DNA from: an uncultured Anaerolineales bacterium
GTDB taxonomy: Bacteria; Chloroflexota; Anaerolineae; Epilineales; JAANWY01
Direction of reading: 5' to 3'
NCBI GenBank assembly: GCA_964532665.1
Contig: CAZHMV010000007.1
Coordinates: 12,132 to 76,131 of the forward strand
Length of the DNA: 64,000 nt
Shown: positions 27,099 to 53,470 of the stretch, piece after piece
Position numbering within the stretch: the stretch's first letter is position 1
Layout: the number at the start of each line of letters is the position of its first letter
The notes under the pieces: generated by a model
The model's input: only the letters and a program-made list of their open reading frames with translations
Database searches by the model: none
Told to the model about the DNA's origin: nothing
Translations under genes and position numbers: made by a program

Positions 27099-27180
27099 GA
27101 CGTGAAACGTGAAACGTAAAACGTGAGAATTCCTACATGCATGGACTGGCCATCACGTTTTATGTTTCACGTTTCACGAG
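27099..27180. repeat. Family A heptamer palindrome: (AACGTGA)x4 - approx 28-nt spacer - (TCACGTT)x4
   Basis: gacgtgaaacgtgaaacgtaaaacgtgag ... catcacgttttatgtttcacgtttcacgag read directly. Same architecture at 40013-40076, 44030-44120, 53394-53470. Confidence 0.85.
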
Positions 27181-27216
27181 ATGGGTAGAGGTTGACCGGG
27201 AATCACGTTCACCGTG

Positions 27217-27882
27217 TCACGCTGGCTGAATGCATCTGGGCGAGTCGTTAGAGGGGGAGTTGACGTAACGCGATACAGCGTAGGCCTCCATCTCTGTTTC
27301 AGGATACGGCTTCAGCAGCGACAGAAGCTGATCTTGCTTCGAACCGTCAAGGGCCAGCCAGTCATCGATCACGTCGTGCGGCAGGATTACGGGCATCCGA
27401 TCGTGAATCGGTCTCAGTAACTGGTTGGGCGTTGTTGTGATGATGGTGCAACTCTTGAGCGGTTCGCCCCCGTCGGCCGGCTCCCACACATCCCACAGGC
27501 CGGCCAGGCCAAATGGCCGCCCCGATTTCAGTCGAACATACATTGGCACCTTCCTGTCGCCGATTTTCTGCCACTCGTAGAAGCCATCCGCCAGCACGAG
27601 ACAGCGGCGTTTCGCAAACGGGACCCGATAGCTGGGCTTCTCGGCGATCGTCTCGGCTCGTGCGTTGATCATGCTGTAGCGCGTGTCAGGCCCCTTAGCC
27701 CAGTGAGGCACCAGGCCCCATCGAAACTGCTCCAGCCGGCGTCCCCCGTTCTTGACCAGAGCCAGAACTTGTTGTGTGGGAGCGATGTTGTAGCGCGGCT
27801 CGTGTTCGACGGAGACGTCGGCTACACCGAATTCGGCAGCGATGTCTTCGATTGTTGCTGCGAGTGTAAACCGTCCGCACAT
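27217..27882 (-). CDS. SOS-response-associated peptidase (SRAP / YedK / HMCES family) abasic-site processing protein
   Basis: 221 aa starting 'MCGRF' (Cys2 nucleophile), 'YNIAPTQ', 'ETIAEKPSYR', 'GFYEW', 'PMPVIL'-type blocks. Confidence 0.85.
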   Translation of the reverse strand: MCGRFTLAATIEDIAAEFGVADVSVEHEPRYNIAPTQQVLALVKNGGRRLEQFRWGLVPHWAKGPDTRYSMINARAETIAEKPSYRVPFAKRRCLVLADGFYEWQKIGDRKVPMYVRLKSGRPFGLAGLWDVWEPADGGEPLKSCTIITTTPNQLLRPIHDRMPVILPHDVIDDWLALDGSKQDQLLSLLKPYPETEMEAYAVSRYVNSPSNDSPRCIQPA

Positions 27883-27904
27883 AGTGATCTCCTGACCTTT
27901 CTTG

Positions 27905-27976
27905 GTAGGGACGAGGCAGGCGGGGTGACGATTTCGTCTGGAATGGGGAGTTCCAACCCGCTTGCCTCGCCCCTAC
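27905..27976. promoter_or_regulatory. 20-bp imperfect inverted repeat (GTAGGGACGAGGCAGGCGGG ... CCCGCTTGCCTCGCCCCTAC) in the SRAP / fumC divergent intergenic region
   Basis: 18/20 complementary positions, 32-nt spacer. Followed by a weak promoter-like TTGCGC-N17-TAGGAT before fumC. Confidence 0.4.
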
Positions 27977-28068
27977 GGCCCGTTTGCGCGTGTCATCAGT
28001 ATATGCTAGGATGGTAGCGGTGTCAAGAACACAATCGACAAATCGTAGCCATGAAAGGAATGTAGGCG

Positions 28069-29472
28069 ATGGAAACACGAACTGAAAGAGACTCCCTGGG
28101 AGAGGTCGGCGTGCCGGCCCATGCCCTGTACGGCGCGCAGACACAGCGCGCGGTGGAGAATTTTCCCATCAGCGGCATTACCTTCCCGCGCGTGTTTATC
28201 CGCGCCCTGGGTTTGATCAAGTACGCGGCTGCTCGGGCCAATGAGGATCTGGGGCTGTTGGACGCGGAGGTGGCCGGCGCCATCCGGCAGGCTGCTCAGG
28301 AGGTCATCGACGGGCAGTTGGATGATCAGTTCCCTATCGACGTGTACCAGACCGGGTCGGGCACATCGACGAACATGAATGCCAACGAGGTGATCTCTAA
28401 CCGGGCAATCCAGATCCTGGGCGGAGAGGTGGGATCCAAGAAGCCAGTTCACCCCAACGACCACGTCAACAAGGGGCAGTCGTCCAACGACGTGATTCCC
28501 ACTGCCATCCACGTGTCTGCGTATCTGGGGGTGACGGAGGATCTGTTGCCGGCCCTGCGCCACCTGCGCGACATCTTGCTCCGACGGGCAGCAGAGTTCG
28601 ATGATGTGGTCAAGACGGGGCGGACCCACCTTATGGATGCCATGCCCATCCGACTCGGTCAGCAACTGTCGGGTCATGCGAGTCAGGTTGACCATGGTGT
28701 CCGCCGGATTGAGGCAACGCTGCCGCGCTTGGCGGAACTGGCCATTGGCGGCACGGCCGTTGGCACAGGCATTAACGCGCATCCGGAGTTCGGCGCTCGC
28801 GTGGCTGCCGCGTTGGTCGAGCTGACTGGATTGCCCTTCCGCGAGGCAGGCAACCACTTCGAGGCCCAGGCCGGCCAGGATGCTGCTGTCGAACTGAGCG
28901 GCCAACTCAAAACCGTCGCCGCCTCACTGATGAAGATTGCCAACGACTTCCGCTGGATGAACTCGGGTCCGCAGGCCGGCCTGGCCGAGATCACCTTGCC
29001 GGCCACTCAGCCAGGCTCGTCCATCATGCCGGGCAAGATCAACCCGGTCATCGCAGAGGCCGTGACGCTGGTCTGCGCCCAGGTCATCGGCAATGATGTG
29101 GCGATCACCATCGGCGGGCAGTCGGGTAATTTTGAACTCAACCTGATGCTGCCGCTCATCGCGCACAATCTGTTGCAGTCCATCACCGTCCTGGCCAACG
29201 CCAGCCGCGTGCTGGCCGACAAGGCGGTGGCCGGTTTCACGGTCAATCGTGAGCACATGGAGAACCTCGTCGAGAAGAATCCAATTCTGGTTACTGCTCT
29301 GGCTCCGCACATCGGCTACGATCTGGCAGCCCGGATCGCAAAGCAGGCCATGGCCGAGGGCCGGCGCGTCCGCGAAGTCGCGCGCAAGATGACCGACCTG
29401 ACGCCCGAGCAACTGGACGAGTACCTGGATGTTTATGCTATGACCCGGGGCGGCATTCCGGGTGAAGGTTAA
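28069..29472 (+). CDS. fumC: Class II fumarate hydratase (aspartase/fumarase superfamily)
   Basis: 467 aa; 'GSSIMPGKINPV' signature, 'SSNDVIPTAIH' closer to the fumarase than the aspartase consensus. Confidence 0.85.
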   Translation: METRTERDSLGEVGVPAHALYGAQTQRAVENFPISGITFPRVFIRALGLIKYAAARANEDLGLLDAEVAGAIRQAAQEVIDGQLDDQFPIDVYQTGSGTSTNMNANEVISNRAIQILGGEVGSKKPVHPNDHVNKGQSSNDVIPTAIHVSAYLGVTEDLLPALRHLRDILLRRAAEFDDVVKTGRTHLMDAMPIRLGQQLSGHASQVDHGVRRIEATLPRLAELAIGGTAVGTGINAHPEFGARVAAALVELTGLPFREAGNHFEAQAGQDAAVELSGQLKTVAASLMKIANDFRWMNSGPQAGLAEITLPATQPGSSIMPGKINPVIAEAVTLVCAQVIGNDVAITIGGQSGNFELNLMLPLIAHNLLQSITVLANASRVLADKAVAGFTVNREHMENLVEKNPILVTALAPHIGYDLAARIAKQAMAEGRRVREVARKMTDLTPEQLDEYLDVYAMTRGGIPGEG

Positions 29473-29476
29473 CTGC

Positions 29477-29578
29477 TCACCCTCCCGCAGGTTGCAACGA
29501 GCAGCGGTTTTGCCCCTCAAACAGGAACCGAGAGCAGCGATGCTTGGCCAGAGAGGGGCTAAACCTGCGGGAGGGTGA
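29477..29578. repeat. Family B element: 17-nt terminal inverted repeats TCACCCTCCCGCAGGTT / AACCTGCGGGAGGGTGA flanking a 68-nt unique core
   Basis: Read directly, 6 nt after the fumC stop. Related copies at 35490-35575 and 40120-40232 with unrelated cores. Confidence 0.8.
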
Positions 29579-35489: not shown

Positions 35490-35575
35490 TAACCCTCCCG
35501 TAGGTTATCGATTAGACGTCAAGATCGGCTTGGAGCGTATGTTGCATAACATAATCAAAACCTGCGGGAGGGTGG
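35490..35575. repeat. Family B element (TAACCCTCCCGTAGGTT ... AACCTGCGGGAGGGTGG) with 53-nt unique core
   Basis: Read directly in the AT-richer gap upstream of the PA14 gene. Confidence 0.7.
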
Positions 35576-41238: not shown

Positions 41239-41467
41239 CGTCGTCAGCCGGCTTCTCCTCCTTTGCGGGTTGTGTCTCGCCGCGAGCGGCGCGTTCCGTT
41301 GCTTCTATCTCGCGCGAAAGCTCTTGCGTGATCTCGCTTGAGGCATCGCGGAACTCACGAATTGATTTGCCCAATGCCTGCCCGATCTCGGGCAGGCGGC
41401 CTGGCCCAAACACAATCAGAGCGATGATGAGGACCAGGATAACCTCCGCAGGACCCAGACCAAACAT
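41231..41467 (-). CDS. tatA: Twin-arginine translocase subunit TatA/E
   Basis: 78 aa; 'MFGLGPAEVILVLIIALIVFGPGRLPEIGQALGKSIREFR'. Confidence 0.9.
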   Translation of the reverse strand: MFGLGPAEVILVLIIALIVFGPGRLPEIGQALGKSIREFRDASSEITQELSREIEATERAARGETQPAKEEKPADDGA

Positions 41468-41489
41468 CCCCTACCCCTTTCCTTTTCGT

Positions 41490-41900: not shown

Positions 41901-42256
41901 TCCGTTACCTCTCTGTCACCCGGTAGCATTACATCCTGGATGTAGACGTTGACCTCAGTGACAGACATCCCTACCATTTCGCTGATGGCCCGGCTGATTG
42001 CCGTCTGGACTTGCTGGCCAAGGGCGAGCATATTGGCATCGTGTTCGGCAATCACGTGCAACTCGACAGACACGGAATCGCCGTTGACCTCAATCTTCAC
42101 GCCTCCGTTGGTCGCACCTCTCTTGAACACGCGGTTGACACCGTCCATGATATGCGTGTCCAGGCGACCAACCCCCGGTGTCTTCAGTGCCGTGAGGCGG
42201 GCGATAGTGACCAATACCTCGGGTGCGATTGTTACCTTGCCCAACTGCTTGTCCAT
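41897..42256 (-). CDS. Asp23/Gls24 family envelope stress protein
   Basis: 119 aa; 'GKVTIAPEVLVTIARLTALKTPGV...VGMSVTEVNVYIQDV'. Confidence 0.8.
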   Translation of the reverse strand: MDKQLGKVTIAPEVLVTIARLTALKTPGVGRLDTHIMDGVNRVFKRGATNGGVKIEVNGDSVSVELHVIAEHDANMLALGQQVQTAISRAISEMVGMSVTEVNVYIQDVMLPGDREVTE

Positions 42257-42273
42257 GGGTCCCTCTCGATGTC

Positions 42274-43023
42274 TCAGATGACCATACCGCCGTCCACGCG
42301 TAGAACCTGGCCCGTGATAAAGCCTGCCTCATCGGAAGCCAGGAATGCCACAGCGTTGGCCACATCTTCAACGGTGCCCAGCCGGCCCAATGGCGTGAGT
42401 TGCACGGCCTGTTGAATCAGGTCCTCTGGCAGGTCAGCCGTCAGGTCGGTCGGGACGTAACCCGGCGCGATGGCGTTGGCGGTGATGTTCCGAGCACCCA
42501 TCTCCTTGGCCACACTCTTGGTAAAGCCGATGAGACCGGCCTTGGCAGCCGAGTAGTTGGCCTGCCCCGGGTTCCCGGCAACGCCGGCCACCGATGTGAT
42601 GTTGATAATCCGGCCGCTACGTTGTTTCATCATCGGGCGAATGGCCGCCTTGGTAACATTATATGCGCCTTTGAGGTTTGTGTCCAGTACCAGGTCCCAG
42701 TCGGCCTCTTTCATCAGGGCCAGCAAATTGTCCCGGGTTGTGCCCGCGTTGTTGACCAGGATGTCCAGTCGGCCAAACTCGTTCAGGGTGGCCTTGACCA
42801 GGCGTTTGGCATCGCCCGCGTCCCGCACGTCGCCCTGCATAGCGATGGCTTGCCCGCCGTTCGCTTTGATCCCTTCGACGACTTCATCAGCCGCTTCTCT
42901 GTTGGTGTTGTAGTTCACAACGACGCTGGCACCCTGGCCGGCCAGTTTCTCGGCAATGGCCCGCCCGATGCCGCGCGATGCACCTGTCACCAACGCTACT
43001 TTGCCCGTGAGGTCAATCATCAT
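42274..43023 (-). CDS. fabG: 3-oxoacyl-[acyl-carrier-protein] reductase
   Basis: 'GKVALVTGASRGIGRAIA', 'NNAG', 'S...Y...K' SDR triad, C-terminal 'GQVLRVDGGMVI'. Confidence 0.9.
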   Translation of the reverse strand: MMIDLTGKVALVTGASRGIGRAIAEKLAGQGASVVVNYNTNREAADEVVEGIKANGGQAIAMQGDVRDAGDAKRLVKATLNEFGRLDILVNNAGTTRDNLLALMKEADWDLVLDTNLKGAYNVTKAAIRPMMKQRSGRIINITSVAGVAGNPGQANYSAAKAGLIGFTKSVAKEMGARNITANAIAPGYVPTDLTADLPEDLIQQAVQLTPLGRLGTVEDVANAVAFLASDEAGFITGQVLRVDGGMVI

Positions 43024-43958
43024 CGTTCTCCTGCGAGTGACTTAAAATCGGCAACGCCGCTCGGATCGCTTACGTTGAGCCGCTTGACGCTTCGATCGAC
43101 GCGGCGGATGAGGCCGGCCAGCACATTACCCGAACCAATCTCCACAAAAGTGTCCGCGCCCTGTTCTATCATGTAACGCACTGAGTCAACCCAGCGCACC
43201 GGCCGCGTGAGTTGCTGGACCAGTTCTTCCTGGATGGCCGGCACGTCGTCGAGCGGTCGGGCACTGATATTGCTGACTACCGGGATTTTCGGTGTCTGGA
43301 TGGTCGTTGCTTTTACCGCCTCTGCGAACTCATTGACGATGGAAGTCATCAGCACGGAGTGCGCGGCGATGGAGACGGCCAGACGGATCACCCGTTTGGC
43401 GCCGGCCTTGCGGGCCAGGTCCATGGCCCGGTCAATGCCATCGAACGTCCCGGAGATCACAATCTGGCCGGGCGCGTTGTCGTTGGCTACCTGGACATCG
43501 CCGGCCTGCTGACAAATATCGGCGACCGTGTGTTCGTCGAGGCCCAGGATCGCTGCCATGCCGCCTGGACTGCGCTGGCCGGCCAGCTTCATGAGCCGCC
43601 CACGTTCCCGAACCAGCCGCAGGCCCTCGGCAAAGCGGAGAGCGCCGGCGGCAACCAGAGCGCTGTACTCGCCCATGCTGTGCCCGGCGACAAAGGCCGG
43701 CGTGGGCAGTTCCGTATGATGTTGCAGAGTGCGCAGCGCGGCGATGCTGGTGGTCAACAGGGCCGGCTGGGCATTCACGGTATCGTCCAGCGTTTCCTTT
43801 GGCCCGCGAAAACACAGGCGGGCAAGATCAATGCCGAGAATATCGTTCGCTTCCTGGAAGACGCTCCGGGCTTCAGGAAAGGCATCATACAGGTCTTGTC
43901 CCATGCCGACCTGCTGCGATCCCTGTCCTGGAAAGACAAACGCAAGTCTTGTGGTCAT
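43020..43958 (-). CDS. fabD: Malonyl CoA-acyl carrier protein transacylase
   Basis: 'FVFPGQGSQQVGMG', 'GHSMGEYSALVAAG'; start taken at MTTRLAFVFPGQ (track ORF extends to 44024 through the upstream repeat). Confidence 0.9.
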   Translation of the reverse strand: MTTRLAFVFPGQGSQQVGMGQDLYDAFPEARSVFQEANDILGIDLARLCFRGPKETLDDTVNAQPALLTTSIAALRTLQHHTELPTPAFVAGHSMGEYSALVAAGALRFAEGLRLVRERGRLMKLAGQRSPGGMAAILGLDEHTVADICQQAGDVQVANDNAPGQIVISGTFDGIDRAMDLARKAGAKRVIRLAVSIAAHSVLMTSIVNEFAEAVKATTIQTPKIPVVSNISARPLDDVPAIQEELVQQLTRPVRWVDSVRYMIEQGADTFVEIGSGNVLAGLIRRVDRSVKRLNVSDPSGVADFKSLAGER

Positions 43959-44029
43959 GGTGTGTTTGTCGGGCATCAAATGAAGAGTGGCCGCGTGACA
44001 GCCGCGGGCACGGAAACAGCGCAACTCTC

Positions 44030-44120
44030 ACGACGTACGACGTGAAACGTGAAACGTGAAACGTGGATACGACTCCAGGTGTTCATAGGCTATCACGTTT
44101 CACGCTTCACGTTTTACGCC
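44030..44120. repeat. Family A heptamer palindrome (ACGTGAA x3-4 - 30-nt spacer - TCACGTT x3-4)
   Basis: cgacgtgaaacgtgaaacgtgaaacgtgg ... tatcacgtttcacgcttcacgttttacgcc read directly between rpmF and fabD. Confidence 0.85.
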
Positions 44121-44191
44121 CTGGCTCGCGCTCAGGGGAAATGCCGGAATGATAGCGGCGGTGCTGTTGCGTCTGGGGATGGGTAGGCCGC

Positions 44192-44389
44192 CTACTCGCT
44201 TCCAGATTCCTCCTCAACTGCGACGACCTCAACGCCACGGTAGAAGCCACAATGCGGACAGACGTGATGTGGCAGCCGTGAGTTATGGCATTGTGGACAC
44301 TCTACGAGGTGAAGCCTCGAAAGTCTGTCATGTGTGCGGCGCTTGTTCCGCCTCGTACGGGACACACGCCGCTTGGGTAGGGGTGCCAT
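44192..44389 (-). CDS. rpmF: 50S ribosomal protein L32 (Zn-ribbon type with acidic C-terminal tail)
   Basis: 'MAPLPKRRVSRTRRNKRRTH...CPQCHNSRLPHHVCPHCGFY'. Confidence 0.85.
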   Translation of the reverse strand: MAPLPKRRVSRTRRNKRRTHDRLSRLHLVECPQCHNSRLPHHVCPHCGFYRGVEVVAVEEESGSE

Positions 44390-44434
44390 TTATTGGTTCG
44401 CCTCCTGATTTGATGTTCTTCGCTGGCAACTCGC

Positions 44435-44977
44435 TCATGTTTCAGTTAGCAGCAACTGCAATTTTGACCAGCGTGGGTCTATGGTATCGATCTCGCAGTC
44501 GCATTGGCCTTCGTTCAGGTTCTGGCCACACTGCGGGCACAGGCCGGCGCAGTCTGGCCGGCAAATGGGATGCATGGGTACGCCCAGCAGGGTGTCTTGC
44601 CGAATGACCTCGGAAAGATCCAGGATGTGCTGCCCGTTGATGAGGGTTGCAAGCTCCTCCCCGGCAATCCGAGGTAGTGCCGCCCCCGACTTAATGTCGA
44701 TACTGGGGCGGAAGTTTTCCTCCAACTCGATCTTCACGGGTGCTTCAAAAGCTTCAAGACAACGGTCACAAACGAGCTCCAGGGTGGTCTCCAGCGTGCC
44801 GGTCACCAGGATGCTGTCGGTGGTATGCATCAGGGTCACGGTGCCGTGGAGCGGGCTTCGTACCTTGACCTCATCACCATCCAGCAGGGTCTGTAGTTCA
44901 CTGGCCGGCTCATCGATATCGTAGCGTCTTGAACTACCCGTTGGTGCCCGAAGTAGTTGCGCGACGTTGAATTGCAT
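44435..44977 (-). CDS. yceD: YceD/DUF177 family protein (large-subunit rRNA accumulation)
   Basis: 180 aa; twin Cys pairs 'CDRCLE' ... 'CPQCGQNLNEGQCDC', conserved synteny with rpmF. Confidence 0.8.
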   Translation of the reverse strand: MQFNVAQLLRAPTGSSRRYDIDEPASELQTLLDGDEVKVRSPLHGTVTLMHTTDSILVTGTLETTLELVCDRCLEAFEAPVKIELEENFRPSIDIKSGAALPRIAGEELATLINGQHILDLSEVIRQDTLLGVPMHPICRPDCAGLCPQCGQNLNEGQCDCEIDTIDPRWSKLQLLLTET

Positions 44978-45103
44978 CGGTTGTTAAGCCTCTTTCGGAG
45001 CTGAGAGTCTCATCGAACTGTACCTCTCGACGGTGGGGTTATTGAGCCTCTGCTCCAGGAGGCCCAACCCGGCACATGATTATAGGCGAGATGGGTTGGG
45101 CTG

Positions 45104-45631
45104 TCAAGAAACCGATGTCTCGGCCGGGACCTCTGGCGTGTCTTCCCCCCCCTCGTCATCAGCGGACGCACTGTCCACCTGGCGTTGCTGCAGGAGTTCG
45201 ATGCCGTTGCGGACCGTCCCCTGAAAGCTTGTCAGTTGCTCTTCCAGTTCCTCCAGGACACGGAGTGCATAGGCGTCGGCTTCAGCGCGAATGCCGTCTG
45301 CCTCCTGGAAGGCATGTGCCAGGAGAGCCTGTTCGCGTTCTTCGGCCCGCTGCGCGATGCGATGCTCTGCCAGCAATTCCTCTGCCTGCTGCTCGGCCAG
45401 GGCTACGATGTTCTGTGCCCGTTCCTGAGCCTGGGCGATGACCCGGTCCCTGTCCTGTCGGATTTGCCTGGCCTCCTGAACCTCTTGCGGAACGGAGATA
45501 CGCAACTGGTTAATGAGTCGCAGAAACTGTTCCTCATCAACCAGCACCATCTTTGTGAAGGGGACCTGGATTCCGCGGTCGCGTAGGGATTCCAATTGGT
45601 CAATCAGGTAGTCGATGTCCATGATAATCAC
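45104..45631 (-). CDS. Coiled-coil protein (ATP-synthase-b-like / DivIVA-like heptads), function unknown
   Basis: 175 aa, long Ala/Glu/Gln/Arg-rich helix, acidic C-terminus. Confidence 0.45.
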   Translation of the reverse strand: MIIMDIDYLIDQLESLRDRGIQVPFTKMVLVDEEQFLRLINQLRISVPQEVQEARQIRQDRDRVIAQAQERAQNIVALAEQQAEELLAEHRIAQRAEEREQALLAHAFQEADGIRAEADAYALRVLEELEEQLTSFQGTVRNGIELLQQRQVDSASADDEGGEDTPEVPAETSVS

Positions 45632-45649
45632 CCCTTTCGGATCGCCGAT

Positions 45650-46171
45650 CTAGCCTTGAACTCGGGCGGTCTCTGCTGCCAGCGCTTGCGCTTTTGCCTG
45701 CAGGGCGATGGCAACGGCCGGCGGTACCAGTGGCGAGACGTCCCCGCCGAGTAGAGCGACCTCTTTCACAAGGCTTGAGCTAAGGAATGCGTGCTCCGGG
45801 CTTGCCATCAGGCAGACAGTTTCAATGTCAGGCGTCAATTGTCGATTCATGTGGGCCATCTTGAACTCGTTCTCGAAATCTGATACGACGCGTAGCCCAC
45901 GGATGAGAACTCTTGCGCCTTGCAAACGTGCGTATGTGACCGTCAAACCACTATATGCATCTACGCGCACGTTGTTGAGATGTGAGACGGCGGCCGCTAC
46001 CATGTTCATGCGTTCTGCGGTTGAAAATAGTGGATTCTTGATGGGATGATCATGATCAAAAACGGCCATGATGACTTCGTCGAAAAGAGCGGCGGCCCGT
46101 TCGGCAATGTCTATGTGGCCGTTGGTGATCGGGTCGAAGGTTGCCGGAAAGACTGCGGTTATCATCTTCAT
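45650..46171 (-). CDS. coaD: Phosphopantetheine adenylyltransferase
   Basis: 'AVFPATFDPITNGHIDIAERAA', 'GLRVVSDFENEFKMAHMN' (PPAT motifs). Confidence 0.9.
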   Translation of the reverse strand: MKMITAVFPATFDPITNGHIDIAERAAALFDEVIMAVFDHDHPIKNPLFSTAERMNMVAAAVSHLNNVRVDAYSGLTVTYARLQGARVLIRGLRVVSDFENEFKMAHMNRQLTPDIETVCLMASPEHAFLSSSLVKEVALLGGDVSPLVPPAVAIALQAKAQALAAETARVQG

Positions 46172-46186
46172 TCGCTTGTTTCAGTT

Positions 46187-48838
46187 TCAGCTTAAGTCGC
46201 CTTCACCATGCCAGAACTCGTTAACGCGTTCGACCAGTAAGGCGTTTTCCGATGCAGACAGGTCGGGGTCGCGCCGAAAGATCTCCATGGCCTCTGCCCG
46301 GGCCGTCTCCAGGATGTGGACATCGCTGAGTTTGGCTGCTTTCAAATCCGGCAGGCCACTCTGGCGTGTGCCGAAGAACTCGCCAGGGCCGCGCAGTTTG
46401 AGGTCTTCTTCGGCCAGGCGGAAACCGTCCTGGGTGCTCTCCACAACGTCGAGCCGGGCCTGGGCACTCCGCGAGGGTGAGTCGGCCAGCAGCAGGCAGT
46501 AGGATTGGTGCTCACCCCGGCCGACGCGGCCCCGGAACTGGTGAAGTTGGGCCAGCCCAAACCGGTCCGCTCCCTCAATGACCATCACCGTGGCATTGGG
46601 GACGTCGATGCCGACCTCGACGACGGATGTGGATACCAGGATGTCCAGCTCGCCGGCCCGGAACTGTGCCATGACCGCTTCTTTTTCCGCATTTTTCAGC
46701 CGGCCGTGCATCAGGCCCAGCCTCAGGTTCGGGAAGACTTCTTTTTGCAGTCGCTCGTATTCCTCGGTGGCGGCCTTGGCCGCGATCTTGTCCGATGCCT
46801 CGATGAGTGGGCAGATGATGAAAGCTTGCCGGCCCTTTTCGATTTGTGACCGGACGAACTGGTACGCTCGCTCGCGCTCCCGGGGGAGCACCTTGCGTGT
46901 GCGGATGGTTTGCCGGCCTGGTGGCAGCTCGTCAATCACCGAGATGTCCAGGTCGCCGTACACCGTCAGCGCCAGCGTGCGGGGGATTGGCGTGGCGGTC
47001 ATGACCAGCACGTGCGGGGCATAACCCCTCGATACGCCGGCGCCTGCTCGGGACAGGCCCTTCTGCCGCAACGCAGCCCGCTGGCCAACTCCGAATCGAT
47101 GCTGCTCGTCGATGACGACGAAGGCCAGGTCCTTGAATTCCACACCCTCCTGGATCAGAGCGTGGGTCCCGATGACAATGTCAACCTCGCCGGACGCAAT
47201 TTCGTCATAGATGGCGTCCTTTTCCGATTTCGTCAGGCTACCTGTCAGTAGCCGGACTGTGAATCGGGAGTTGCGAATTGCGAATTGCGAAGGGCGTTTG
47301 TCAGTCGTCGTTTGTTGTTCGTCGGCGAGGGAAGCGAGCAGGTTCGTCACATTGCGATAGTGCTGCTCGGCCAGAATCTCCGTGGGTGCCATCATCGCTG
47401 CCTGAGCGCGGTTGGCTACGGTCATGAGCATGGCGACGACGGCCACGACCGTTTTGCCGGATCCGACGTCACCTTGCAGGAGCCGGCTCATGGGGCGCTT
47501 GCGTGTCAGGTCCCGCAGGATGTCGTTCAACACGCGGCCCTGGGCTCGGGTCAGCTTGAACGGAAGCGTCTCCAGAATGGATTGCAGCATGTCGCGCGGG
47601 ATGTCCATCGGCCGGCCGGTTTCTTGCTGCCAGATACGCCGCTGCCGGAGCACGCCAAGCTGGATGAGCAAGAATTCGTCGAAGCTGAGCCGGCGTCGTG
47701 CCTCCTTTAAGGTGTCCCAGTTGTCAGGGAAGTGGATCTGGTACATCGCTTCGTCGATGGGAAGCAGGTTTTCTCGCTGTCGGACGTGCTCGGGGAGGTA
47801 CTCCTGGAGGGCGCCGGCCCATCCATCGACAACGCGGCTCATGAGGCGGCGCATCCAGCGCGCGCTGATGCCTTTGGTCAACGGGTATACGGGCACCAGC
47901 CGGGCGGTGTGTACCAGCTTCTGTTCCAGCGGCTCCCATTCGGGTGCCTGGAAGGTCAGCCGGCCCAGGTACTTCTCGACTCGCCCGCTCAGGACGATCT
48001 TGCGGCCGGGCCGCAGTTGCCGGACAAGGTACGGTTGATTGAACCAGGTGGCCTCGATGGTCCCGGTTGCGTCGGAGAAAATCGCGGTGGTGATGCTCTG
48101 TCCGCTCCGCGTGCGGCGGTTGTTGCATTCCCAGACGGTGCCGACAATCGTCACTTCCTCGCCATATTCGAGTTGGTTTATGGTCTTGAGTGCGCTGAAG
48201 TCGTCGTAGCGCCGGGGGAAGAGGTATAACAGGTCTTCCACGGTTCGCACGCCCAGCCGGCCCAGTCGCCGACGATAGGTGTCGCTGATTCCTTGCAGGT
48301 TTTCCACAGGCGTGTTGAGGTCCAGATCGGCTCGCGGTTGCCGGCGCCGCCCGCGCGGGGTGCTCCGTGCTCTGTCCTGAGCTTGTTGCAGAGCTTGCTG
48401 AGGATCAGTCTGATCGACCTGCTCTTGAACCTGCGCGGGCGGAGGAGGTGTCGGCTGCTGCGGTTGGGCGCGTGGTGGCCCCGTCCTCCTCGCCTGACGA
48501 TCTCTGGCTTTTGCATCTGTCTGGCGCGGAGCGCCGTCTGAAGAGTCCGAACTCTCCTCAGCAATCTGCAACTGCAGTACGCTGAGGTTGTGCAGTTGTT
48601 TCAAAGCTTCTCGCACGGTCGATTCGCGGCTCTCAATGTCCTTGTGCTCGTAGCCGCGCAGCAGCTCGCTGATGATGCGCACCTGACGTTGGGCGCGATC
48701 GTCGTCGATAGTCTCCAGGGCTTCCTGTTCCCAGCGGGCCACGAAGCGCCTGAGCCCACCGATCACGGCTCGATCTCGAAACCCCGTGTCTCGCTCCAGG
48801 TCCAGGACCTTGTTGAGTTTTTCTAATGCCGGCAACAT
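46187..48838 (-). CDS. recG: ATP-dependent DNA helicase RecG (long N-terminal extension)
   Basis: 883 aa; wedge domain, 'LLQGDVGSGKTVVA' Walker A, 'VIDEQHRFGV' DEQH box, 'TATPIPRTL', C-terminal TRG motif region. Contains an in-frame heptamer-repeat insertion (see repeat 47263-47330). Confidence 0.9.
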   Translation of the reverse strand: MLPALEKLNKVLDLERDTGFRDRAVIGGLRRFVARWEQEALETIDDDRAQRQVRIISELLRGYEHKDIESRESTVREALKQLHNLSVLQLQIAEESSDSSDGAPRQTDAKARDRQARRTGPPRAQPQQPTPPPPAQVQEQVDQTDPQQALQQAQDRARSTPRGRRRQPRADLDLNTPVENLQGISDTYRRRLGRLGVRTVEDLLYLFPRRYDDFSALKTINQLEYGEEVTIVGTVWECNNRRTRSGQSITTAIFSDATGTIEATWFNQPYLVRQLRPGRKIVLSGRVEKYLGRLTFQAPEWEPLEQKLVHTARLVPVYPLTKGISARWMRRLMSRVVDGWAGALQEYLPEHVRQRENLLPIDEAMYQIHFPDNWDTLKEARRRLSFDEFLLIQLGVLRQRRIWQQETGRPMDIPRDMLQSILETLPFKLTRAQGRVLNDILRDLTRKRPMSRLLQGDVGSGKTVVAVVAMLMTVANRAQAAMMAPTEILAEQHYRNVTNLLASLADEQQTTTDKRPSQFAIRNSRFTVRLLTGSLTKSEKDAIYDEIASGEVDIVIGTHALIQEGVEFKDLAFVVIDEQHRFGVGQRAALRQKGLSRAGAGVSRGYAPHVLVMTATPIPRTLALTVYGDLDISVIDELPPGRQTIRTRKVLPRERERAYQFVRSQIEKGRQAFIICPLIEASDKIAAKAATEEYERLQKEVFPNLRLGLMHGRLKNAEKEAVMAQFRAGELDILVSTSVVEVGIDVPNATVMVIEGADRFGLAQLHQFRGRVGRGEHQSYCLLLADSPSRSAQARLDVVESTQDGFRLAEEDLKLRGPGEFFGTRQSGLPDLKAAKLSDVHILETARAEAMEIFRRDPDLSASENALLVERVNEFWHGEGDLS
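47263..47330. repeat. Tandem heptamers TTGCGAA x3 followed by TCGTCGTTTGTTGTTCGTCG, lying in frame inside recG
   Basis: gttgcgaattgcgaattgcgaagggcgtttgtcagtcgtcgtttgttgttcgtcgg read directly; encodes ...DEQQTTTDKRPSQFAIRNSRF... between helicase motifs I and II, where E. coli RecG has a shorter loop (from memory). Confidence 0.5.
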
Positions 48839-48863
48839 GCCGATCCCCTCATGGTGTTACACG

Positions 48864-49709
48864 TTATTGGTCTGTGCCCACAACGCACGCAATTCCAACG
48901 GCGCCCGGGCCGGCGTGGGTGCCGACTACCGGGCCGGCTTCCGTGATGAGAATGCGTTCGATGGGATGTAGTGCTCCCAGCCGCTCCCGGACCTGAGCGG
49001 CCAACTCAGGTGCGGCGGCGTGAATGACGGCCACTTCTTCCAGCGGTAGCCGGTCGCCGGCGATCTGGATCAGTCGGTCTACCGCCCGGCGCATGGTACG
49101 GGCATTTTCCAGCGGCACAAGCTCGCTGTTCTGGAAGGCGACCAGCGGTTTCACGCGCAATAGGGCCCCCATCATGGCGGCCGCCCGCCCGATGCGCCCG
49201 CCCCGGCGCGCGTATTCCAGGGTATCGAGCACGGCCCACAGCCGCAATCTTGGTATCGTCCGCTCGATGAGGTCAAGGATCTCTTCCAAAGCGCGGCCGG
49301 CCCGGGCTGCTCTCGCGGCCAGAATGGTCAACCACCCCTCCGCCATGGCAATCTGCGTCGAGTCTACCACAGTGATCTCGGCGTTGTCGATCACGGCAGC
49401 AGCCGCGCGTGCCGCGTCCAGGGTTCCGCTGACGGTGTCCGGGATGTGGATCGAGATGATCTGATCAGTCTCCCGGGCCAGTCGCCGGTAGACCATCTCA
49501 AAATCGCCCACGGGCGGCTGCGACGTGGTGGGAAGTTCGTCGCTTCCCACCAGTCGGCGATAGAACTCGGCGTCGGACACGTCAACCTTGTCCCGATATG
49601 TCTTCCCGCCGATGACGACAACCGCCGGCACCACCTCGATCTCCAGCTCTCGGCAGATGTCGGGCGGAATGTCGGATATGCTGTCTGTGACGATGCGAAC
49701 CTGGCTCAT
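48864..49709 (-). CDS. DegV family fatty-acid-binding protein
   Basis: 'VRIVTDSISDIP', 'GTHAGPGAVGIA' DegV hallmarks. Confidence 0.85.
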   Translation of the reverse strand: MSQVRIVTDSISDIPPDICRELEIEVVPAVVVIGGKTYRDKVDVSDAEFYRRLVGSDELPTTSQPPVGDFEMVYRRLARETDQIISIHIPDTVSGTLDAARAAAAVIDNAEITVVDSTQIAMAEGWLTILAARAARAGRALEEILDLIERTIPRLRLWAVLDTLEYARRGGRIGRAAAMMGALLRVKPLVAFQNSELVPLENARTMRRAVDRLIQIAGDRLPLEEVAVIHAAAPELAAQVRERLGALHPIERILITEAGPVVGTHAGPGAVGIACVVGTDQ

Positions 49710-49715
49710 GGTCGG

Positions 49716-49792
49716 TGAACAGTGATCAGTGATCAGTGACCAGTGATCAGTAACCAGTAATCAGGATCTGGTCACTGATCACTGGTCACTCG
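49716..49792. repeat. Family C heptamer palindrome: (CAGTGAT/CAGTGAC/CAGTAAC)x6 then (TCACTGA/TCACTGG/TCACTCG)x3, filling the whole yloV-degV gap
   Basis: gaacagtgatcagtgatcagtgaccagtgatcagtaaccagtaatcaggatctggtcactgatcactggtcactcgg read directly. Confidence 0.85.
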
Positions 49793-51501
49793 GCTGATAG
49801 AATGTAATGGTAGTACGGCTGGCCGCCGGAGACAACTTCCACCTCCTGCGCGGGATAGGCCGCTTGAACTCGCTCGCCCAACGTTTCGGCTTGCTCGCGG
49901 GCGATGTCTTCGCCGTAGAAGATGGTAATGATTTCGTACTGGTCGGCGTCCATCTGCTCCAGCATTTCCATGACCATGTCGTCCACATTGTTGTTGGCTG
50001 TCACCAGTTGACCGTTGAGCAGGCCGATGACTTCGCCCTCTTGAACTTCCAACCCACCGATTTGTACCGAACGAACAGCGCGCGTGATTTCGCCGGTCTG
50101 TATGTCGCGTATGGCGCGGGTCATGGCTTCGGTGTTCTCGTCCAGGCCGGCCTGGTAGTTGAGGGCCAGCAGCGCCGCAATTCCCTGGGGTACTGTGTGG
50201 GTGGGAACAACGCGCACCTGACGATCGGCGAGTTCAACTGCCTGTTCAGCCACCATGAGCACGTTCTTGTTGTTGGGCAGCAGGATGACCTGGTCGCTGT
50301 CTACCGAGCTGATGGCTTCCAGCAGTTCCTGGGTGCTCGGATTCATGGTCTGGCCGCCACGGATGATCGCGCTGGCGCCCATACTCTTGAAGACATCTTC
50401 TAAACCGGGGCCAGGTACAACTGCGATGACCGCGATGCCACTCAGTTCTTCGACGGCGACGGTTTCGGGTGCCGGTCTTGCTTGTGGGCCTTCCTCGGCT
50501 TCCTCTGCCAGATCGAGCCCGATGAAGTGTTCGTGTTGCTCCTGCATGTTGTCGATCTTGATCTTGTGAAGCGTTCCGTGCTCGGTGGCGTAGTCCAGTA
50601 CCTGGCCGGGGCGGAAGGTGTGGATGTGAACGCGAATCAGATACTCGTCGCCGACGATGAGGGCGGAGTCGCCCATTTGCAGCAGGTTTTGCTTAATTTG
50701 GTCGTAGTCAAGCTGCTGTCCCTGGAGCACGAATTCGGTGCAGTAGCCGTACTCCATCTCGGTAGCGCCGGCCCGAGGAAGGGCGGCTGTCGGAACGGGT
50801 TCGGTGGGCATAGTGATCTCCAATGGTTCCCCGCGCATGTACCGCAGGGCGCCCTCGAGGATGATCTGGAGCCCCAGGCCACCCGCATCGACGACGCCGG
50901 CTTCGTGCAGTATCTTCAACAAGCTGGGGGTTTTCTCGACGGCCTTATCGGCCGCTTCAACGACATGTTCTAGCATGAGCAGGAGATCATCCGTTTTGCG
51001 GACGGTGGCTTCCGCTTCATCTGCCACTTCCCGGATGACGGTGAGGATGGTGCCCTCGACGGCGTTGGTGACAGCTTTATAGGCTGTGTTGCTGCCTTCT
51101 CGGAGCGCCCTGGTGAATCCGTCAACGTTGAAGGCCTCCGTGTCTGCCAGCGCCCGGCCAAAGCCACGCAGAATCTGAGACAGGATCACCCCCGAATTGC
51201 CACGCGCGCCCATGAGCGCGCCCTGGGAGATACCGCGTGCAATCTCGCCGGCGTGGTGCGACGGGTTCGCGGCAATCTCGGCCATGGCTGCCTCCATGGT
51301 CAGGAGCATGTTGGTTCCGGTGTCCCCATCGGGCACCGGGAAGACGTTGAGGGCATTGACGCGGGCAGCGTTCTTCTCCAGCCATGCGGTGCCGGCAGCG
51401 ATCAGTCGTTTCAGTTCTTGACCGTCACATGTGTGCCGGCTGATGCCTGGTCTGGTCGATGTCTGCCTGTCGGCCGTCCGCCGGTCAACTGCCTCCGCCA
51501 T
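49786..51501 (-). CDS. yloV: DAK2-domain fusion protein YloV (dihydroxyacetone-kinase-like)
   Basis: 571 aa; 'DGDTGTNMLLTM', DAK2 helical bundle then DegV-like C-terminal domain. Confidence 0.85.
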   Translation of the reverse strand: MAEAVDRRTADRQTSTRPGISRHTCDGQELKRLIAAGTAWLEKNAARVNALNVFPVPDGDTGTNMLLTMEAAMAEIAANPSHHAGEIARGISQGALMGARGNSGVILSQILRGFGRALADTEAFNVDGFTRALREGSNTAYKAVTNAVEGTILTVIREVADEAEATVRKTDDLLLMLEHVVEAADKAVEKTPSLLKILHEAGVVDAGGLGLQIILEGALRYMRGEPLEITMPTEPVPTAALPRAGATEMEYGYCTEFVLQGQQLDYDQIKQNLLQMGDSALIVGDEYLIRVHIHTFRPGQVLDYATEHGTLHKIKIDNMQEQHEHFIGLDLAEEAEEGPQARPAPETVAVEELSGIAVIAVVPGPGLEDVFKSMGASAIIRGGQTMNPSTQELLEAISSVDSDQVILLPNNKNVLMVAEQAVELADRQVRVVPTHTVPQGIAALLALNYQAGLDENTEAMTRAIRDIQTGEITRAVRSVQIGGLEVQEGEVIGLLNGQLVTANNNVDDMVMEMLEQMDADQYEIITIFYGEDIAREQAETLGERVQAAYPAQEVEVVSGGQPYYHYILSAE

Positions 51502-51542
51502 GCTGCGCTCCGTTCATTGTTTAACATCTCTTTCAGCTCGCA

Positions 51543-51893
51543 CTAACTCACCCGCAATCCCTGAACATGGACATTGACGCTCGCGACGGGGATGCCCAGG
51601 GCATGTTCGACAGCGTATTTTACATTGTGCATGATGTTTTGGGCAACTTCGGAAATGCGGGTGCCGTATTCCAGAACGACATACAGGTCGATAACAATCT
51701 CGTCATTGACCAGCCGGGCCTGGACACCGCGCCGGTAGTTCTCGCGCCCCAGGATTTCGGCCAGGCCATGGCGCAGGCTCGGCGACGACATGCCGACGAC
51801 GCCATAACAGGTCAGCACGGCCTGGCTGGCCAGGGCCGCGACGGCCGCCGGCGAGATTTCGATTTTACCCAGTTGGGTGTGTTCACCTGGCAT
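51543..51893 (-). CDS. yloU: Asp23/Gls24 family protein (YloU-like)
   Basis: 116 aa; 'GKIEISPAAVAALASQAVLTCYGVVGM...IDLYVVLEYGTRISEVAQNI'. Confidence 0.8.
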   Translation of the reverse strand: MPGEHTQLGKIEISPAAVAALASQAVLTCYGVVGMSSPSLRHGLAEILGRENYRRGVQARLVNDEIVIDLYVVLEYGTRISEVAQNIMHNVKYAVEHALGIPVASVNVHVQGLRVS

Positions 51894-51972
51894 GTTTTTC
51901 CCTCTCGCGCAGGTTTGTCAAAACGACGCGCCTGTGGTAATATTATCCCCCGTGTAAAGGGGGTGAAATTGT

Positions 51973-52176
51973 ATGGCTAAATGCGAAGTTTGTGGTAAGG
52001 GCCCACAGTTTGGGCACAACGTCAGCCACTCCATGCGGCACACCAAGCGGCAGTTCAAGCCGAACATTCAAAAGAAGACCGTCTATGTTGAAGGTCAGAA
52101 GCGCCGCATTCATATCTGCATGAAGTGTTTGAAGAATCTGGACTATCGGATTGCAACGGGTGATGTGCGGCTCTGA
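51973..52176 (+). CDS. rpmB: 50S ribosomal protein L28 (Zn-ribbon variant)
   Basis: 67 aa 'MAKCEVCGKGPQFGHNVSHSMRHTKRQFKPNIQK...CMKCLKN'; divergent from yloU-yloV as in Bacillus-type rpmB synteny. Confidence 0.75.
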   Translation: MAKCEVCGKGPQFGHNVSHSMRHTKRQFKPNIQKKTVYVEGQKRRIHICMKCLKNLDYRIATGDVRL

Positions 52177-52196
52177 GAGCAGCACATCTCCGTTTT

Positions 52197-53339
52197 CTAC
52201 TCCTTCCCAATCGTCTGTCCTACAAGCCCCTCGTCCACCCGGGTACGCAACTGCCCACAGCCGGCCTGCACATCAATTCCGCGTCGAACGCGCAGCGTGG
52301 TCGGGATGCCGTGCTGTTCCAGAATGTCCTGAAACGCCACACAGCGGTCGTAGGATGACGGACGCATGTCGGAGCCGGGCGTCGGGTTGAGCGGGATCAG
52401 GTTGACGTGACATAACATGCCCTGGATCAGGCCGGCCAGCGCAGCGGCGTGCTCTGGAAAGTCATTCACGCCGTCGATCATTACGTACTCGAAGGTGATG
52501 CGCCGACCGGTGTGTGCCAGATACTCGCGGCAGGCATCCAGCACCTCGCCCAGCGGGTGTTGCACGTTGATAGGCACCAGTTGGTTGCGCAGTTCGTCGT
52601 TGGGGGCGTGCAGCGAGACTGCCAGTCGCACCTGGAGGCCAGCCCGCGCCAGCTTGCGGATACCCGGCACCAGACCGACGGTTGAGATTGTCATCCGCCG
52701 CGCTCCCAGGTTGAACCCATCGGCGTCGTTCAGCGTTTGGACGGCTTGCCAGGTGGCTGGCCAGTTCGCCAGGGGTTCGCCCATCCCCATGAACACCAGG
52801 TTGGTAAGCCGCTTACCCTGCCCGCGCAACTCCCGTGCCAGGTAGACCGCCTGCTCAATGATTTCGCCGGCTGTCATCTGGCGCATCAGACCCATCTGCC
52901 CAGTTGCGCAGAAGATACAGCCCATAGCACAGCCGACCTGGGTGGAAATGCAGGCGGTGTGGCGTCCCCGGTTGCGACCATTGGTCTCATCCAGCGGCTC
53001 GCCGGCGGTTTCACTGCGGTAGTCGGGGTCGCCGGGTTGGTAGTGCATCAGGACAGCCTCGACGCGCTCGCCGTCCGCCAGTTGGAACAGGGTCTTGCGG
53101 GCCGGCGTCGTCTGCGAATGCATCTCGGCGACCGGCGCGACGGTGTGGATGGCCGCAACCTCCTCCAGTCGCTCCCGCAGTCCTGTGGGCAGGTTTGTCA
53201 TCTCGTCGAAGCCGGCCGCCAGGTGGTGGTACAGCCAGTCCCAAATCTGGTCAGCCCGGTAGCGTGGCTCACCGAGTTCTCGAACGAAATCTTCAAGCTC
53301 TGCATGGGTGAGATCGAAGAGATGGGCTTTGGTAGGCAT
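52197..53339 (-). CDS. rlmN: 23S rRNA (adenine2503-C2)-methyltransferase, radical SAM
   Basis: 'CISTQVGCAMGCIFCATG' CxxxCxxC, 'GEPLAN', C-terminal Cys. Start set at MPTKAHLFDL...; the track's 5' extension to 53453 is encoded by the Family A repeat. Confidence 0.9.
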   Translation of the reverse strand: MPTKAHLFDLTHAELEDFVRELGEPRYRADQIWDWLYHHLAAGFDEMTNLPTGLRERLEEVAAIHTVAPVAEMHSQTTPARKTLFQLADGERVEAVLMHYQPGDPDYRSETAGEPLDETNGRNRGRHTACISTQVGCAMGCIFCATGQMGLMRQMTAGEIIEQAVYLARELRGQGKRLTNLVFMGMGEPLANWPATWQAVQTLNDADGFNLGARRMTISTVGLVPGIRKLARAGLQVRLAVSLHAPNDELRNQLVPINVQHPLGEVLDACREYLAHTGRRITFEYVMIDGVNDFPEHAAALAGLIQGMLCHVNLIPLNPTPGSDMRPSSYDRCVAFQDILEQHGIPTTLRVRRGIDVQAGCGQLRTRVDEGLVGQTIGKE

Positions 53340-53393
53340 CGATTCTGTCGGGTCGGGAGTTGATCTTCGCCGGACGCGAAGCGACTTCGGCAG

Positions 53394-53470
53394 GCGTGAA
53401 ACGTAAAACGTGAAACGTGAGGATGGGTCAATGAAGAAACTATCACGTTTCACGCTTCACGTTTCACGCC
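53394..53470. repeat. Family A heptamer palindrome (GCGTGAA ACGTAAA ACGTGAA ACGTGAG - spacer - TCACGTT TCACGCT TCACGTT TCACGCC)
   Basis: Read directly between the Zn-peptidase gene and rlmN. Confidence 0.85.

Follow-up and report, generated by a model that had tools for sequence, protein, structure and literature searches.

Introduction

Direct repeats of a heptanucleotide have reportedly been known from cyanobacteria since the STRR heptamers were described by Mazel and colleagues in 1990. In the accounts of the survey of Mrazek et al. (2007) that are given in PMC4679880 and PMC4692102, heptanucleotide repeats outnumber every other class of longer simple repeat in the majority of the prokaryotic genomes that were examined. 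Xanthomonas genomes each contain about 180 mainly intergenic arrays of GGGAATC, including 70-75 inverted pairs that are always convergent (Rehm et al. 2015, PMC4692102), and the positions of these arrays are conserved between species, with variable length (PMC4692102). Here we describe a dispersed family of palindromes whose arms are tandem copies of the unit ACGTGAA, found in a 64,000-nucleotide stretch of DNA from an uncultured Anaerolineales bacterium of the Chloroflexota (assembly GCA_964532665.1, contig CAZHMV010000007.1, positions 12,132 to 76,131 of the forward strand). We call this whole stretch the window and number it from its first letter.

In Geobacter metallireducens, repeats of classes 1-3 consist of 3-5 tandem units of 7-9 nt (for example MTYCTGA), mostly in opposite-strand pairs at variable distance (Aklujkar et al. 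2009, PMC2700814); the sites occur in many copies, some of which have insertion sequences at fixed distances, and they were read as putative regulator sites (PMC2700814). Direct repeats of TAACTGA are common to Beggiatoaceae, Cyanobacteria and Bacteroidetes (MacGregor 2015, PMC4679880), and one case among 170 sets in a Beggiatoa genome is inverted (PMC4679880). REP elements, in the definition found in PMC3733652, are imperfect palindromes of 20-40 nt with a GTAG or CGTC tag at one end. We conclude that the four sites in the window are copies of a dispersed non-coding hairpin repeat with arms of one 7-base unit, an undescribed sequence family of a kind that has been reported.

Results

Four intergenic palindromes in the window

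Read directly, the window contains four intergenic palindromes of the form (ACGTGAA)3-4, a centre of 22-28 nt, and (TTCACGT)2-4. A search with a two-unit 13-base probe, ACGTGAAACGTGA, allowing up to 2 mismatches and using dinucleotide shuffles as background, gave 21 matches in the window, every one of them within the four clusters, where 1.11 were expected and the shuffle maximum was 4. The initial annotation, made from the letters alone, had claimed four copies with a shared heptamer-palindrome architecture at these places, and both the direct reading and the probe count bear it out. Tandem Repeats Finder reported period 7 in both arms of every copy, the period-7 self-match of the arms was 0.83-1.00, and an inverted-repeat scan gave arm lengths of 25-31 nt with complementarity of 84-96%. 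The centres start with GAGAAT, GAGGAT or GGATAC and end with (C/T)ATCACG, as had also been claimed, and apart from 4-6 nt at either end they are unrelated to one another. Gene calls agreed with the annotation in placing all four copies between genes; its further claim, that both arms of a copy have the same number of units, failed for copy 2. The four copies are as follows.

Copy 1, 27100 to 27179, no strand assigned: four units, 26-nt centre, four units; where two convergent genes end, one for a fumarase C-terminal protein (+ strand) and one for an SRAP peptidase (- strand).
Copy 2, 40015 to 40076, no strand assigned: about four left units, 23-nt centre, two right units; asymmetric and partly decayed; between tatC and a gene of 440 aa, both on the - strand.
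Copy 3, 44040 to 44119, no strand assigned: four units, 28-nt centre, four units; downstream of an rpmF-like open reading frame and 64 nt upstream of fabD, - strand.
Copy 4, 53393 to 53470, no strand assigned: four units, 22-nt centre, four units; between a Zn-peptidase gene and rlmN, - strand.

The left arm of copy 1 reads ACGTGAA ACGTGAA ACGTAAA ACGTGA and its right arm TCACGTT TTATGTT TCACGTT TCACG, with a single degenerate unit (TTTTATG) in the right arm. Pairing in copy 3 reaches out to 44029-44123, and copies 2, 3 and 4 carry an identical G.T mismatch at the corresponding unit. As RNA, the + strand of copy 1 had a predicted fold of -50.2 kcal/mol (z = -8.0) and its - strand one of -43.1; copy 3 reached -49.5 kcal/mol (z = -6.1) and copy 4 -53.3 kcal/mol (z = -10.6), its - strand forming 28 pairs without interruption, and the fold of copy 2 was weak (z = -1.7). 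The longest open reading frame of rlmN (52197-53453) enters copy 4, and the called gene start lies at 53339, 114 nt further in, which upholds the claim that this copy lends rlmN a spurious N-terminal extension. Across the whole window Rfam 15 gave 0 matches at gathering score. A fifth ACGTGAA copy lies on the source contig outside the window, at about 71111-71167 in window numbering (L127, 19479-19535), making five copies in 81 kb.

The asymmetric centre, GA(G/A)GAT..., lies on the + strand in all five contig copies regardless of the direction of the flanking genes, and GC skew is positive across most of 27099-53470 plus the L127 stretch. Replication, and not transcription, may set the orientation of the centre, although five copies are too few for significance.

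Properties measured across loci

A species-representative genome collection was scanned with a pattern in which a gap of 15-40 nt is flanked left and right by two inner units, and properties were measured on 116 elements, selected by pattern, from the scanned loci, which total 962 kb. None of the 93 elements with a resolvable context lay inside a called open reading frame; 63 lay between co-directional genes, 16 between convergent and 14 between divergent ones, roughly the proportions that we would expect of random intergenic placement. Arrays of three or more units had an inverted partner within 80 nt in 166 cases and were alone in 8. The order (ACGTGAA)n...(TTCACGT)n occurred 137 times in the 962 kb and the reverse order 0 times, most of these elements having been chosen by the search pattern itself; in the viral scans, which were unselected, the stated order was found 5 times and the reverse 0 times, and the corresponding counts for a sister family with the unit CAGTGAN were 4 and 0. 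Variant units (GCGTGAA, ACGTGAT, ACGTGAG, ACGTAAA and others) had an exact mirror image in the other arm in 61 cases, where shuffles gave 12.5 +/- 3.2. These mirrored variants indicate that the two arms are co-derived or corrected against each other. Mismatches between arms comprised 181 transitions and 51 transversions.

The outer ends read (G/A)CGTGAA...TTCACG(C/T) and fade into partial units. Inner-end motifs are common to the copies within one genome, GAGGAT...ATCACG in the source contig and GAGATC...GATCTC in Caldilineae. Direct repeats of 3-9 nt in the flanks of 110 elements were at chance level, so that there was no sign of target-site duplication, and no conserved target sequence was found at element flanks in the scanned loci. 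Nor did any gene family recur beside the elements of 118 loci; the largest cluster was that of ABC transporters, at 7 of the 118, followed by epimerases, short-chain dehydrogenases and tRNA synthetases. Derivation from a DDE transposase, as in a MITE (a transposable element of the miniature inverted-repeat class), was considered and rejected, there being neither a target duplication nor internal sequence common to the four window copies.

Gain and loss in syntenic relatives

A protein search with RecG identified three syntenic relatives, L120, L121 and L122, whose RecG proteins are 80%, 74% and 68% identical to that of the window; the best relatives of the window RecG are annotated as Anaerolineae, and exact protein matches place the window on a JGI metagenome contig of 116,930 bp. 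The Zn-peptidase-rlmN spacer contains the element in the source contig and in L120, but L122 lacks it there. The rpmF-fabD spacer has it in the source contig and L120 and lacks it in the other two relatives, while the spacer between tatC and the next gene has one in the source contig, none in L120 and L121, and a separate one in L122. The FakA-DegV spacer carries an element of the sister family, CAGTGAN, in the source contig only, where it measures 76 nt versus 12-23 nt in the three relatives. Presence and absence at these four spacers, which the initial annotation had connected with mobility, show that elements are gained and lost at genus-level divergence.

Where an element is retained between the source contig and L120, its arms are about 90% identical, and the centre and wider spacer can hardly be aligned; the rpmF-fabD and Zn-peptidase-rlmN elements also differ in unit number and centre between these two. 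The retained arms stay intact as ACGTGAA and do not show the drift of a purely structural stem. The element-free spacers of the relatives have no replacement in three of the four cases; the exception is the spacer between the Zn-peptidase gene and rlmN, where L122 carries another hairpin that resembles a terminator. An intergenic spacer of L121 (5719-5764) contains a run of 14 G followed by more than 30 C, which may be an assembly artefact.

Distribution across genomes

The scan of the species-representative collection found at least 118 DNA stretches with the element, mainly in Chloroflexota metagenome-assembled genomes (MAGs), so that with the fifth contig copy the family extends well beyond the four examples of the initial annotation. 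Among the matches listed, the Chloroflexota groups are Anaerolineae, Caldilineae, Litorilinea, Ardenticatenaceae, Chloroflexia, Dehalococcoidia and Limnocylindrales; matches labelled Verrucomicrobiota or Planctomycetota lie on long contigs or closed chromosomes; and the remaining matches, whose contigs mostly measure 3.5-290 kb, carry the labels Acidobacteriota, Gemmatimonadota, Rhodothermia, Desulfobacterota, Calditrichota, Bacteroidota and a Rhodanobacteraceae bin. There are several matches per MAG, and those on Mb-scale records sit millions of bases apart. Closed carriers include JADJXK010000002.1 (Candidatus Leptofilum), OY969916.1 and OY969416.1, and MAGs of Litorilinea aerophila also have the element. 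A few of the short-contig matches could reflect mis-binning, an explanation that does not extend to the closed chromosomes. Neither of the 15-base two-unit strings occurred in a full-text search of roughly 8 million papers, and as far as we could check the ACGTGAA family, its abundance in Chloroflexota and its measured properties are new. The earlier statement that the repeat belongs to no described family thus stands for the unit, on the strength of this text search, and falls for the kind, of which examples are reported in PMC4692102 and PMC2700814.

Several unrelated Chloroflexota MAGs have a heptamer hairpin at the centre of a larger palindromic repeat, in the order GGCTCTTTGGGATTTCGTGGGGTTTG, hairpin, (C)TTGTCAACCCCNNGAATTCCCAAAGAGCC; the sites are L003 3430-3560, L026 60-190, L041 900-1030, L091 1240-1360, L109 1400-1490 and, on the - strand, L118 at about 4073, where the copy of the larger palindrome has a different insert at its centre. 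This arrangement suggests nesting at hairpin tips. The Caldilineae element has a conserved GCGTTAGTCGGTCGGCC motif on one flank (L027 3440-3600, L046 2550-2710, L033, L083 and L102). About 170 nt around it are conserved between two MAGs, as are the surroundings of the elements in L002 and L093, and this indicates that the Caldilineae hairpin belongs to a larger repeat or non-coding feature.

A generic heptamer design with a polarity rule

Palindromes of the same design built from other units, among them GACGATG, TTGCGTA, GGAGATT, GGGGATT, GGACGGA, AGTGAAA, AAGTCCA and CAGTGAN, are also present in the loci. Among 273 distinct strong hairpins in about 0.92 Mb, 106 had arms of period 7, 11 of period 8 and 6 of period 9, other periods being essentially absent. 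The 7-nt periodicity on which the initial annotation had remarked is therefore general and not an accident of four copies. The inverted heptamer-array class dominates the long hairpins of many Chloroflexota genomes, and on the source contig the majority of strong hairpins (arms of at least 14 nt) are heptamer-built. The G-richer arm was 5' in 17 of 20 elements of other unit families (12 of the 15 unit families). This polarity rule agrees with the "always convergent" GGGAATC pairs of Xanthomonas, and none of the mechanisms considered here explains it. Since unrelated units share one architecture, the class cannot be put down to one protein that recognises a particular sequence; both the step of 7 nt and the polarity belong to the process and not to the unit.

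Examples of the polarity can be seen at L054 3275-3340, L023 7606-7688, L037 852-897, L081 5660-5749 and L116 5348-5413. Stop codons in three frames were considered as a general rationale for the design and rejected: the rationale holds for ACGTGAA and CAGTGAN, whereas GACGATG, GGGGATT and others contain no stop codon.

Elements in phages and plasmids

A scan of a viral collection found four contigs with ACGTGAA elements and two with CAGTGAN elements. One of the former, L126, is a phage with genes for portal, major head and major tail proteins, and in it two elements with related centres flank the major head gene on both sides (1087-2192). In a second contig, L125 (4858-5954), an element lies about 52 nt beyond the major head gene. 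In L131 (4949-5663) an internal virion protein gene has a CAGTGAN element on either side, and each of the two ends just ahead of a GGAGG or AGGAG ribosome-binding site; L132 is another of these phage contigs. Placement at the head gene in two of four contigs is unlikely to be due to chance (a probability of about one in a hundred, assuming some 50 spacers per phage). Phages place stabilising or terminating hairpins at the head-gene position. No other observation speaks as strongly for an effect of the transcribed hairpin as this placement does, and phages also offer a vehicle for spread between hosts. An annotated phage collection gave no matches.

The annotated plasmid collection yielded only single arrays, in Klebsiella and Nostoc plasmids, beside genes without a Pfam match. 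In Nostoc edaphicum plasmid pNe_5 (NZ_CP054697.1; L130 2370-2800) a block of about 180 nt per copy is repeated twice; it is dense in TGTTTCA(C/T) and TGAAACA and contains three tandem GTTTCAC units and TGTTTCATGAAACA palindromes. The block resembles a centromere or a region of iterons that has escaped annotation. Klebsiella sp. plasmid p2 (CP037443.1; L129 3495-3740) and three similar plasmids of about 104-112 kb have a single array of four GAAACGT units, which in p2 adjoins AAAACCCAAAGTCAAAACC repeats and two hairpin-like blocks in an unannotated 1.6-kb gap.

The sister family and other repeats on the contig

The sister family, with the unit CAGTGA(A/T/C) and an architecture like that of the ACGTGAA family, has two copies in the window.

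Sister copy, 49715 to 49790, no strand assigned: fills the entire FakA-DegV spacer, beginning at the FakA stop codon and stopping 5 nt before the DegV start; predicted fold -46.2 kcal/mol (z = -6.8).
Sister copy, 60662 to 60740, no strand assigned: has almost no centre; the stop codon of the upstream gene lies in its first units and the start codon of the downstream gene 17 nt beyond it; predicted fold -49.9 kcal/mol (z = -7.9).

A third CAGTGAN copy lies on the source contig outside the window, at about 67410-67489 in window numbering. With the sister copies included, five of the six window elements have predicted RNA folds of -46 to -53 kcal/mol and z of -6 to -10.6.

Several other repeats accompany these elements. 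A nested palindrome of CGGAT-containing units of about 8-9 nt lies at 7443-7542 (GAAGAACACGGATTGCTCGGATGGGCGGAT, a 30-nt centre and the complement), with an inner 15-nt hairpin within the outer one and a second copy outside the window (L127, 14800-14866). Another inverted repeat, (C)ACCCTCCCG(C/T)AGGTT ... AACCTGCGGGAGGGT(G), with 52-68 nt between its arms, has three copies (29477-29578, 35492-35573 and 40125-40224), the last of which is about 50 nt from heptamer copy 2, forming a repeat mosaic within one spacer. Unpaired purine-rich tandem arrays of period 7-8 lie at 14058-14146 and 63942-63984 (GGAGAAT, AAGGGGA; AGGGAAAA in five copies).

Discussion

The explanation that we tentatively favour, while holding it to be somewhat short of probable, is that the ACGTGAA element is a REP-like palindromic simple-sequence repeat that is kept by 7-nt slippage and hairpin templating and is transcribed as a stable intercistronic hairpin. 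Arrays would change in 7-nt steps by slipped-strand mispairing of the DNA, and the element, when single-stranded, would fold back so that a change in one arm is copied to the other or erased. Such hairpin templating would leave the arms complementary and mirror-ordered and the centre free to drift. Copies would arise in and vanish from intergenic DNA without a target duplication or a linked gene, and copies within genes would not be tolerated, partly through the TGA in each unit, by which three units close all three frames on both strands. The elements are presumably transcribed, because most of them sit in short spacers between co-directional genes; as RNA they would form stable hairpins of 20-28 bp. 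The role of these hairpins is most likely that of REP hairpins, which is to block exonucleases or to be sites of processing and so to adjust how much of each adjacent cistron is present relative to the other, and phages appear to exploit these hairpins around virion genes. We infer the slippage, the hairpin-templated correction and any effect of the RNA from the properties described above. The initial annotation had offered a choice between a protein-recognised iterated site and an element generated by slipped strands; the slipped-strand half fits the data, and the protein half is a weaker possibility, with the identity of the unit to half a parS site in its favour and the generic architecture against it.

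Several observations weigh against this explanation. The absolute polarity of the arms is not explained by passive slippage, and together with the constancy of the unit across phyla and the genome-specific inner ends it points to a trans-acting factor or to descent from a master copy; the inner-end motifs in particular fit master-copy descent better than independent local origin. At orthologous sites the arms do not co-vary, and a unit constant across classes and phyla looks like the mark of a sequence-specific constraint or trans-acting factor. On the sense strand of the 63 co-directional elements, G.U-compatible mismatches were not in excess over others (52 vs 47, a comparison to which the crude longest-ORF (open reading frame) rule used for the locus gene calls adds noise), so that RNA pairing is not detectably under selection. 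The excess seen in the window, where five of six arm mismatches are G.U-compatible, had suggested selection at the RNA level and was set aside as a small-sample effect in view of the count over the 63 elements. Finally, a terminator scan of 39500-54000 scored no element as an intrinsic terminator. The terminator-like stability raised by the initial annotation thus held as far as folding is concerned, three copies reaching -50 to -53 kcal/mol on their better strand; it did not hold for the weakly folding copy 2 or for the terminator score. We rejected the reading of the elements as intrinsic terminators on this score and on the lack of a U-run: no T run follows the window copies, and their centres measure 22-28 nt, versus the short loop of terminators.

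The explanations that follow and the one that we favour are not mutually exclusive. In another register ACGTGAA reads GTGAAAC/GTTTCAC, identical to the half-parS heptamer. The parS site is a 16-bp palindrome, TGTTNCACGTGAAACA, with the halves TGTTNCAC and GTGAAACA (PMC7022226), and by chromatin immunoprecipitation sequencing (ChIP-seq) P. aeruginosa ParB and several other ParBs occupy hundreds of GTTCCAC/GTTTCAC half-sites (reviewed in PMC7022226). Omega of pSM19035, the one protein found by us for which experiments have established that it reads contiguous 7-bp repeats, binds 7-10 contiguous WATCACW repeats with one dimer per repeat and needs at least four of them to be contiguous (PMC9499535). 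The arms could accordingly be duplex arrays, each coated by a chromosomal ParB, a ParB-like protein or a ribbon-helix-helix (RHH, Omega-like) protein, and serve as landing pads for nucleoid organisation or as operators, which we regard as rather improbable. Conservation of the unit across phyla in which parS is likewise conserved would agree with such a role, as would the Nostoc plasmid cluster of TGTTTCAC/GTGAAACA motifs with its three tandem GTTTCAC units and the fact that the arm order which would create a full parS at the centre never occurs (GTTTCACGTGAAAC is absent from all 122 loci, where half-sites are everted only). One protein, however, cannot explain a class in which many unrelated heptamers share the architecture, and a duplex binder needs neither the inverted partner (166 arrays paired, 8 lone) nor the mirror-ordered variants; the elements are scattered over Mb-scale chromosomes and not clustered, the window contains no full parS with three or fewer mismatches, and no ParB or RHH gene is linked. 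The pattern of unit variation also differs from that of parS, positions 3, 5 and 6 of GTGAAAC being variable and position 4, which parS leaves free, invariant, and recognition of the ParB type was rejected on this pattern; it was seen in two analyses, one in which the phasing of the units leaves C, G and T no freedom to vary and another that is less constrained. An Omega-type operator was rejected as well: most arms have its period and contiguity, but their consensus is (T/A)TCACG(T/C), and they are linked neither to partition genes nor to an RHH gene. Non-autonomous mobile DNA of the REPIN or MITE type, moved in trans, for example by an HUH/Y1 transposase that recognises the hairpin, and helped between lineages by phages, seems to us unlikely. 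Its attraction is that it would account for presence and absence at orthologous sites, one of which is occupied in a distant relative and empty in those that are closer, and for the occurrence of the element in several phyla and on phage contigs; strict polarity is expected from master-copy descent, with which the genome-specific inner-end motifs and the G.T mismatch shared by copies 2, 3 and 4 also agree; the lack of a target duplication is compatible with IS200/IS605-type chemistry, and the elements are frequently nested inside or beside other repeats. Copy-and-paste should nevertheless carry the centre along, and the centres are unrelated within a genome despite near-identical arms. No transposase-like family recurs, either within 8 kb of the 118 loci or across 81 kb of the source contig; the elements lack both a GTAG/CGTC tag and a conserved end target, and their outer ends decay gradually rather than sharply.

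Selection for the RNA itself would make the elements intercistronic hairpins that act as 3'-end stabilisers, RNase III sites or partial terminators to tune operon neighbours, with heptamers as the cheapest way to a long stem. The very stable predicted hairpins speak for this, as do the many elements that fill short spacers between co-directional genes, the intact arms at orthologous sites, and the placement in phages, where two independent contigs have an element beside the major head gene and a third has elements around an internal virion protein gene that end before ribosome-binding sites. We nonetheless consider it quite unlikely as the main cause, since sense-strand mismatches show no excess of G.U over A.C, structure-only selection would let the arm sequence drift whereas the unit is conserved, no U-run trails the hairpins, the context proportions resemble random intergenic placement, and relatives without the element have no replacement at three of the four spacers. 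A last possibility, which we hold to be very doubtful, is a polar enzyme-driven process acting on DNA ends or hairpins, such as the templated extension of the two 3' ends of a break by 7-nt repeats, or synthesis by fold-back where the tip of a hairpin has been cleaved, that would be common to Chloroflexota, Xanthomonas, Geobacter and cyanobacteria. If true, it would explain the common polarity (G-richer arm 5' on both strands), the unrelated centres and the location at the centres of other palindromes, and its ACGTGAA product would be an array of ParB half-sites that might have a secondary role in nucleoid organisation.

The ACGTGAA family makes the old question of the heptamer repeats more testable, by virtue of a unit identical to half a parS site, a polarity rule that extends across families, and a placement at phage head genes that points to a measurable effect on expression. 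On the practical side, the elements create false N-terminal extensions, as in rlmN, and set the positions of stop codons, so that gene callers applied to Chloroflexota MAGs are affected; they are also likely break points in short-read assemblies.

Comparison with known systems

Likeness to the ParB and Omega systems lies in GTTTCAC, the half-parS heptamer, and in the contiguous 7-bp repeats with a TCAC core that are read by Omega; the elements differ from them in having no full parS, another pattern of variation, arms split by a non-repeat centre and no linked partition genes. With STRR and TAACTGA repeats they share 7-nt units, an intergenic location often a few bases upstream of start codons, and occurrence in distant phyla, and the sister family (CAGTGAA, CAGTGAT, CTGGTCA) is in some register one base from STRR2/STRR3 and TAACTGA; those repeats, however, are direct arrays, whereas the arrays here are inverted pairs. 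REP and REPIN sequences offer the best analogy for the way in which the element may act, being dispersed, high-copy, intergenic imperfect palindromes that form stable operon hairpins and are nested or clustered with other repeats. The ACGTGAA elements nevertheless lack the GTAG/CGTC tag, have arms of a 7-nt simple repeat and have unrelated centres. Neither the genes called in 81 kb of the source contig nor the recurrent families of 118 loci included a RAYT gene, and these features together support the original judgement that this is not a generic REP hairpin. The Geobacter sites resemble the elements as paired tandem short-repeat sites on opposite strands; they have other units and mixed periods, and polarity and turnover were not part of that analysis. 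The GGGAATC arrays of Xanthomonas differ in lineage, in a G-tract unit for which a G-quadruplex has been proposed, whereas ACGTGAA has no G run, and in their many single arrays, where ACGTGAA arrays of at least three units are nearly always paired. They share with the ACGTGAA elements the tandem 7-nt units, the close opposite-strand arrays in convergent orientation only, and the G-richer arm 5' on either strand, and in both systems position is conserved and length varies, as it does between the elements of the source contig and L120.

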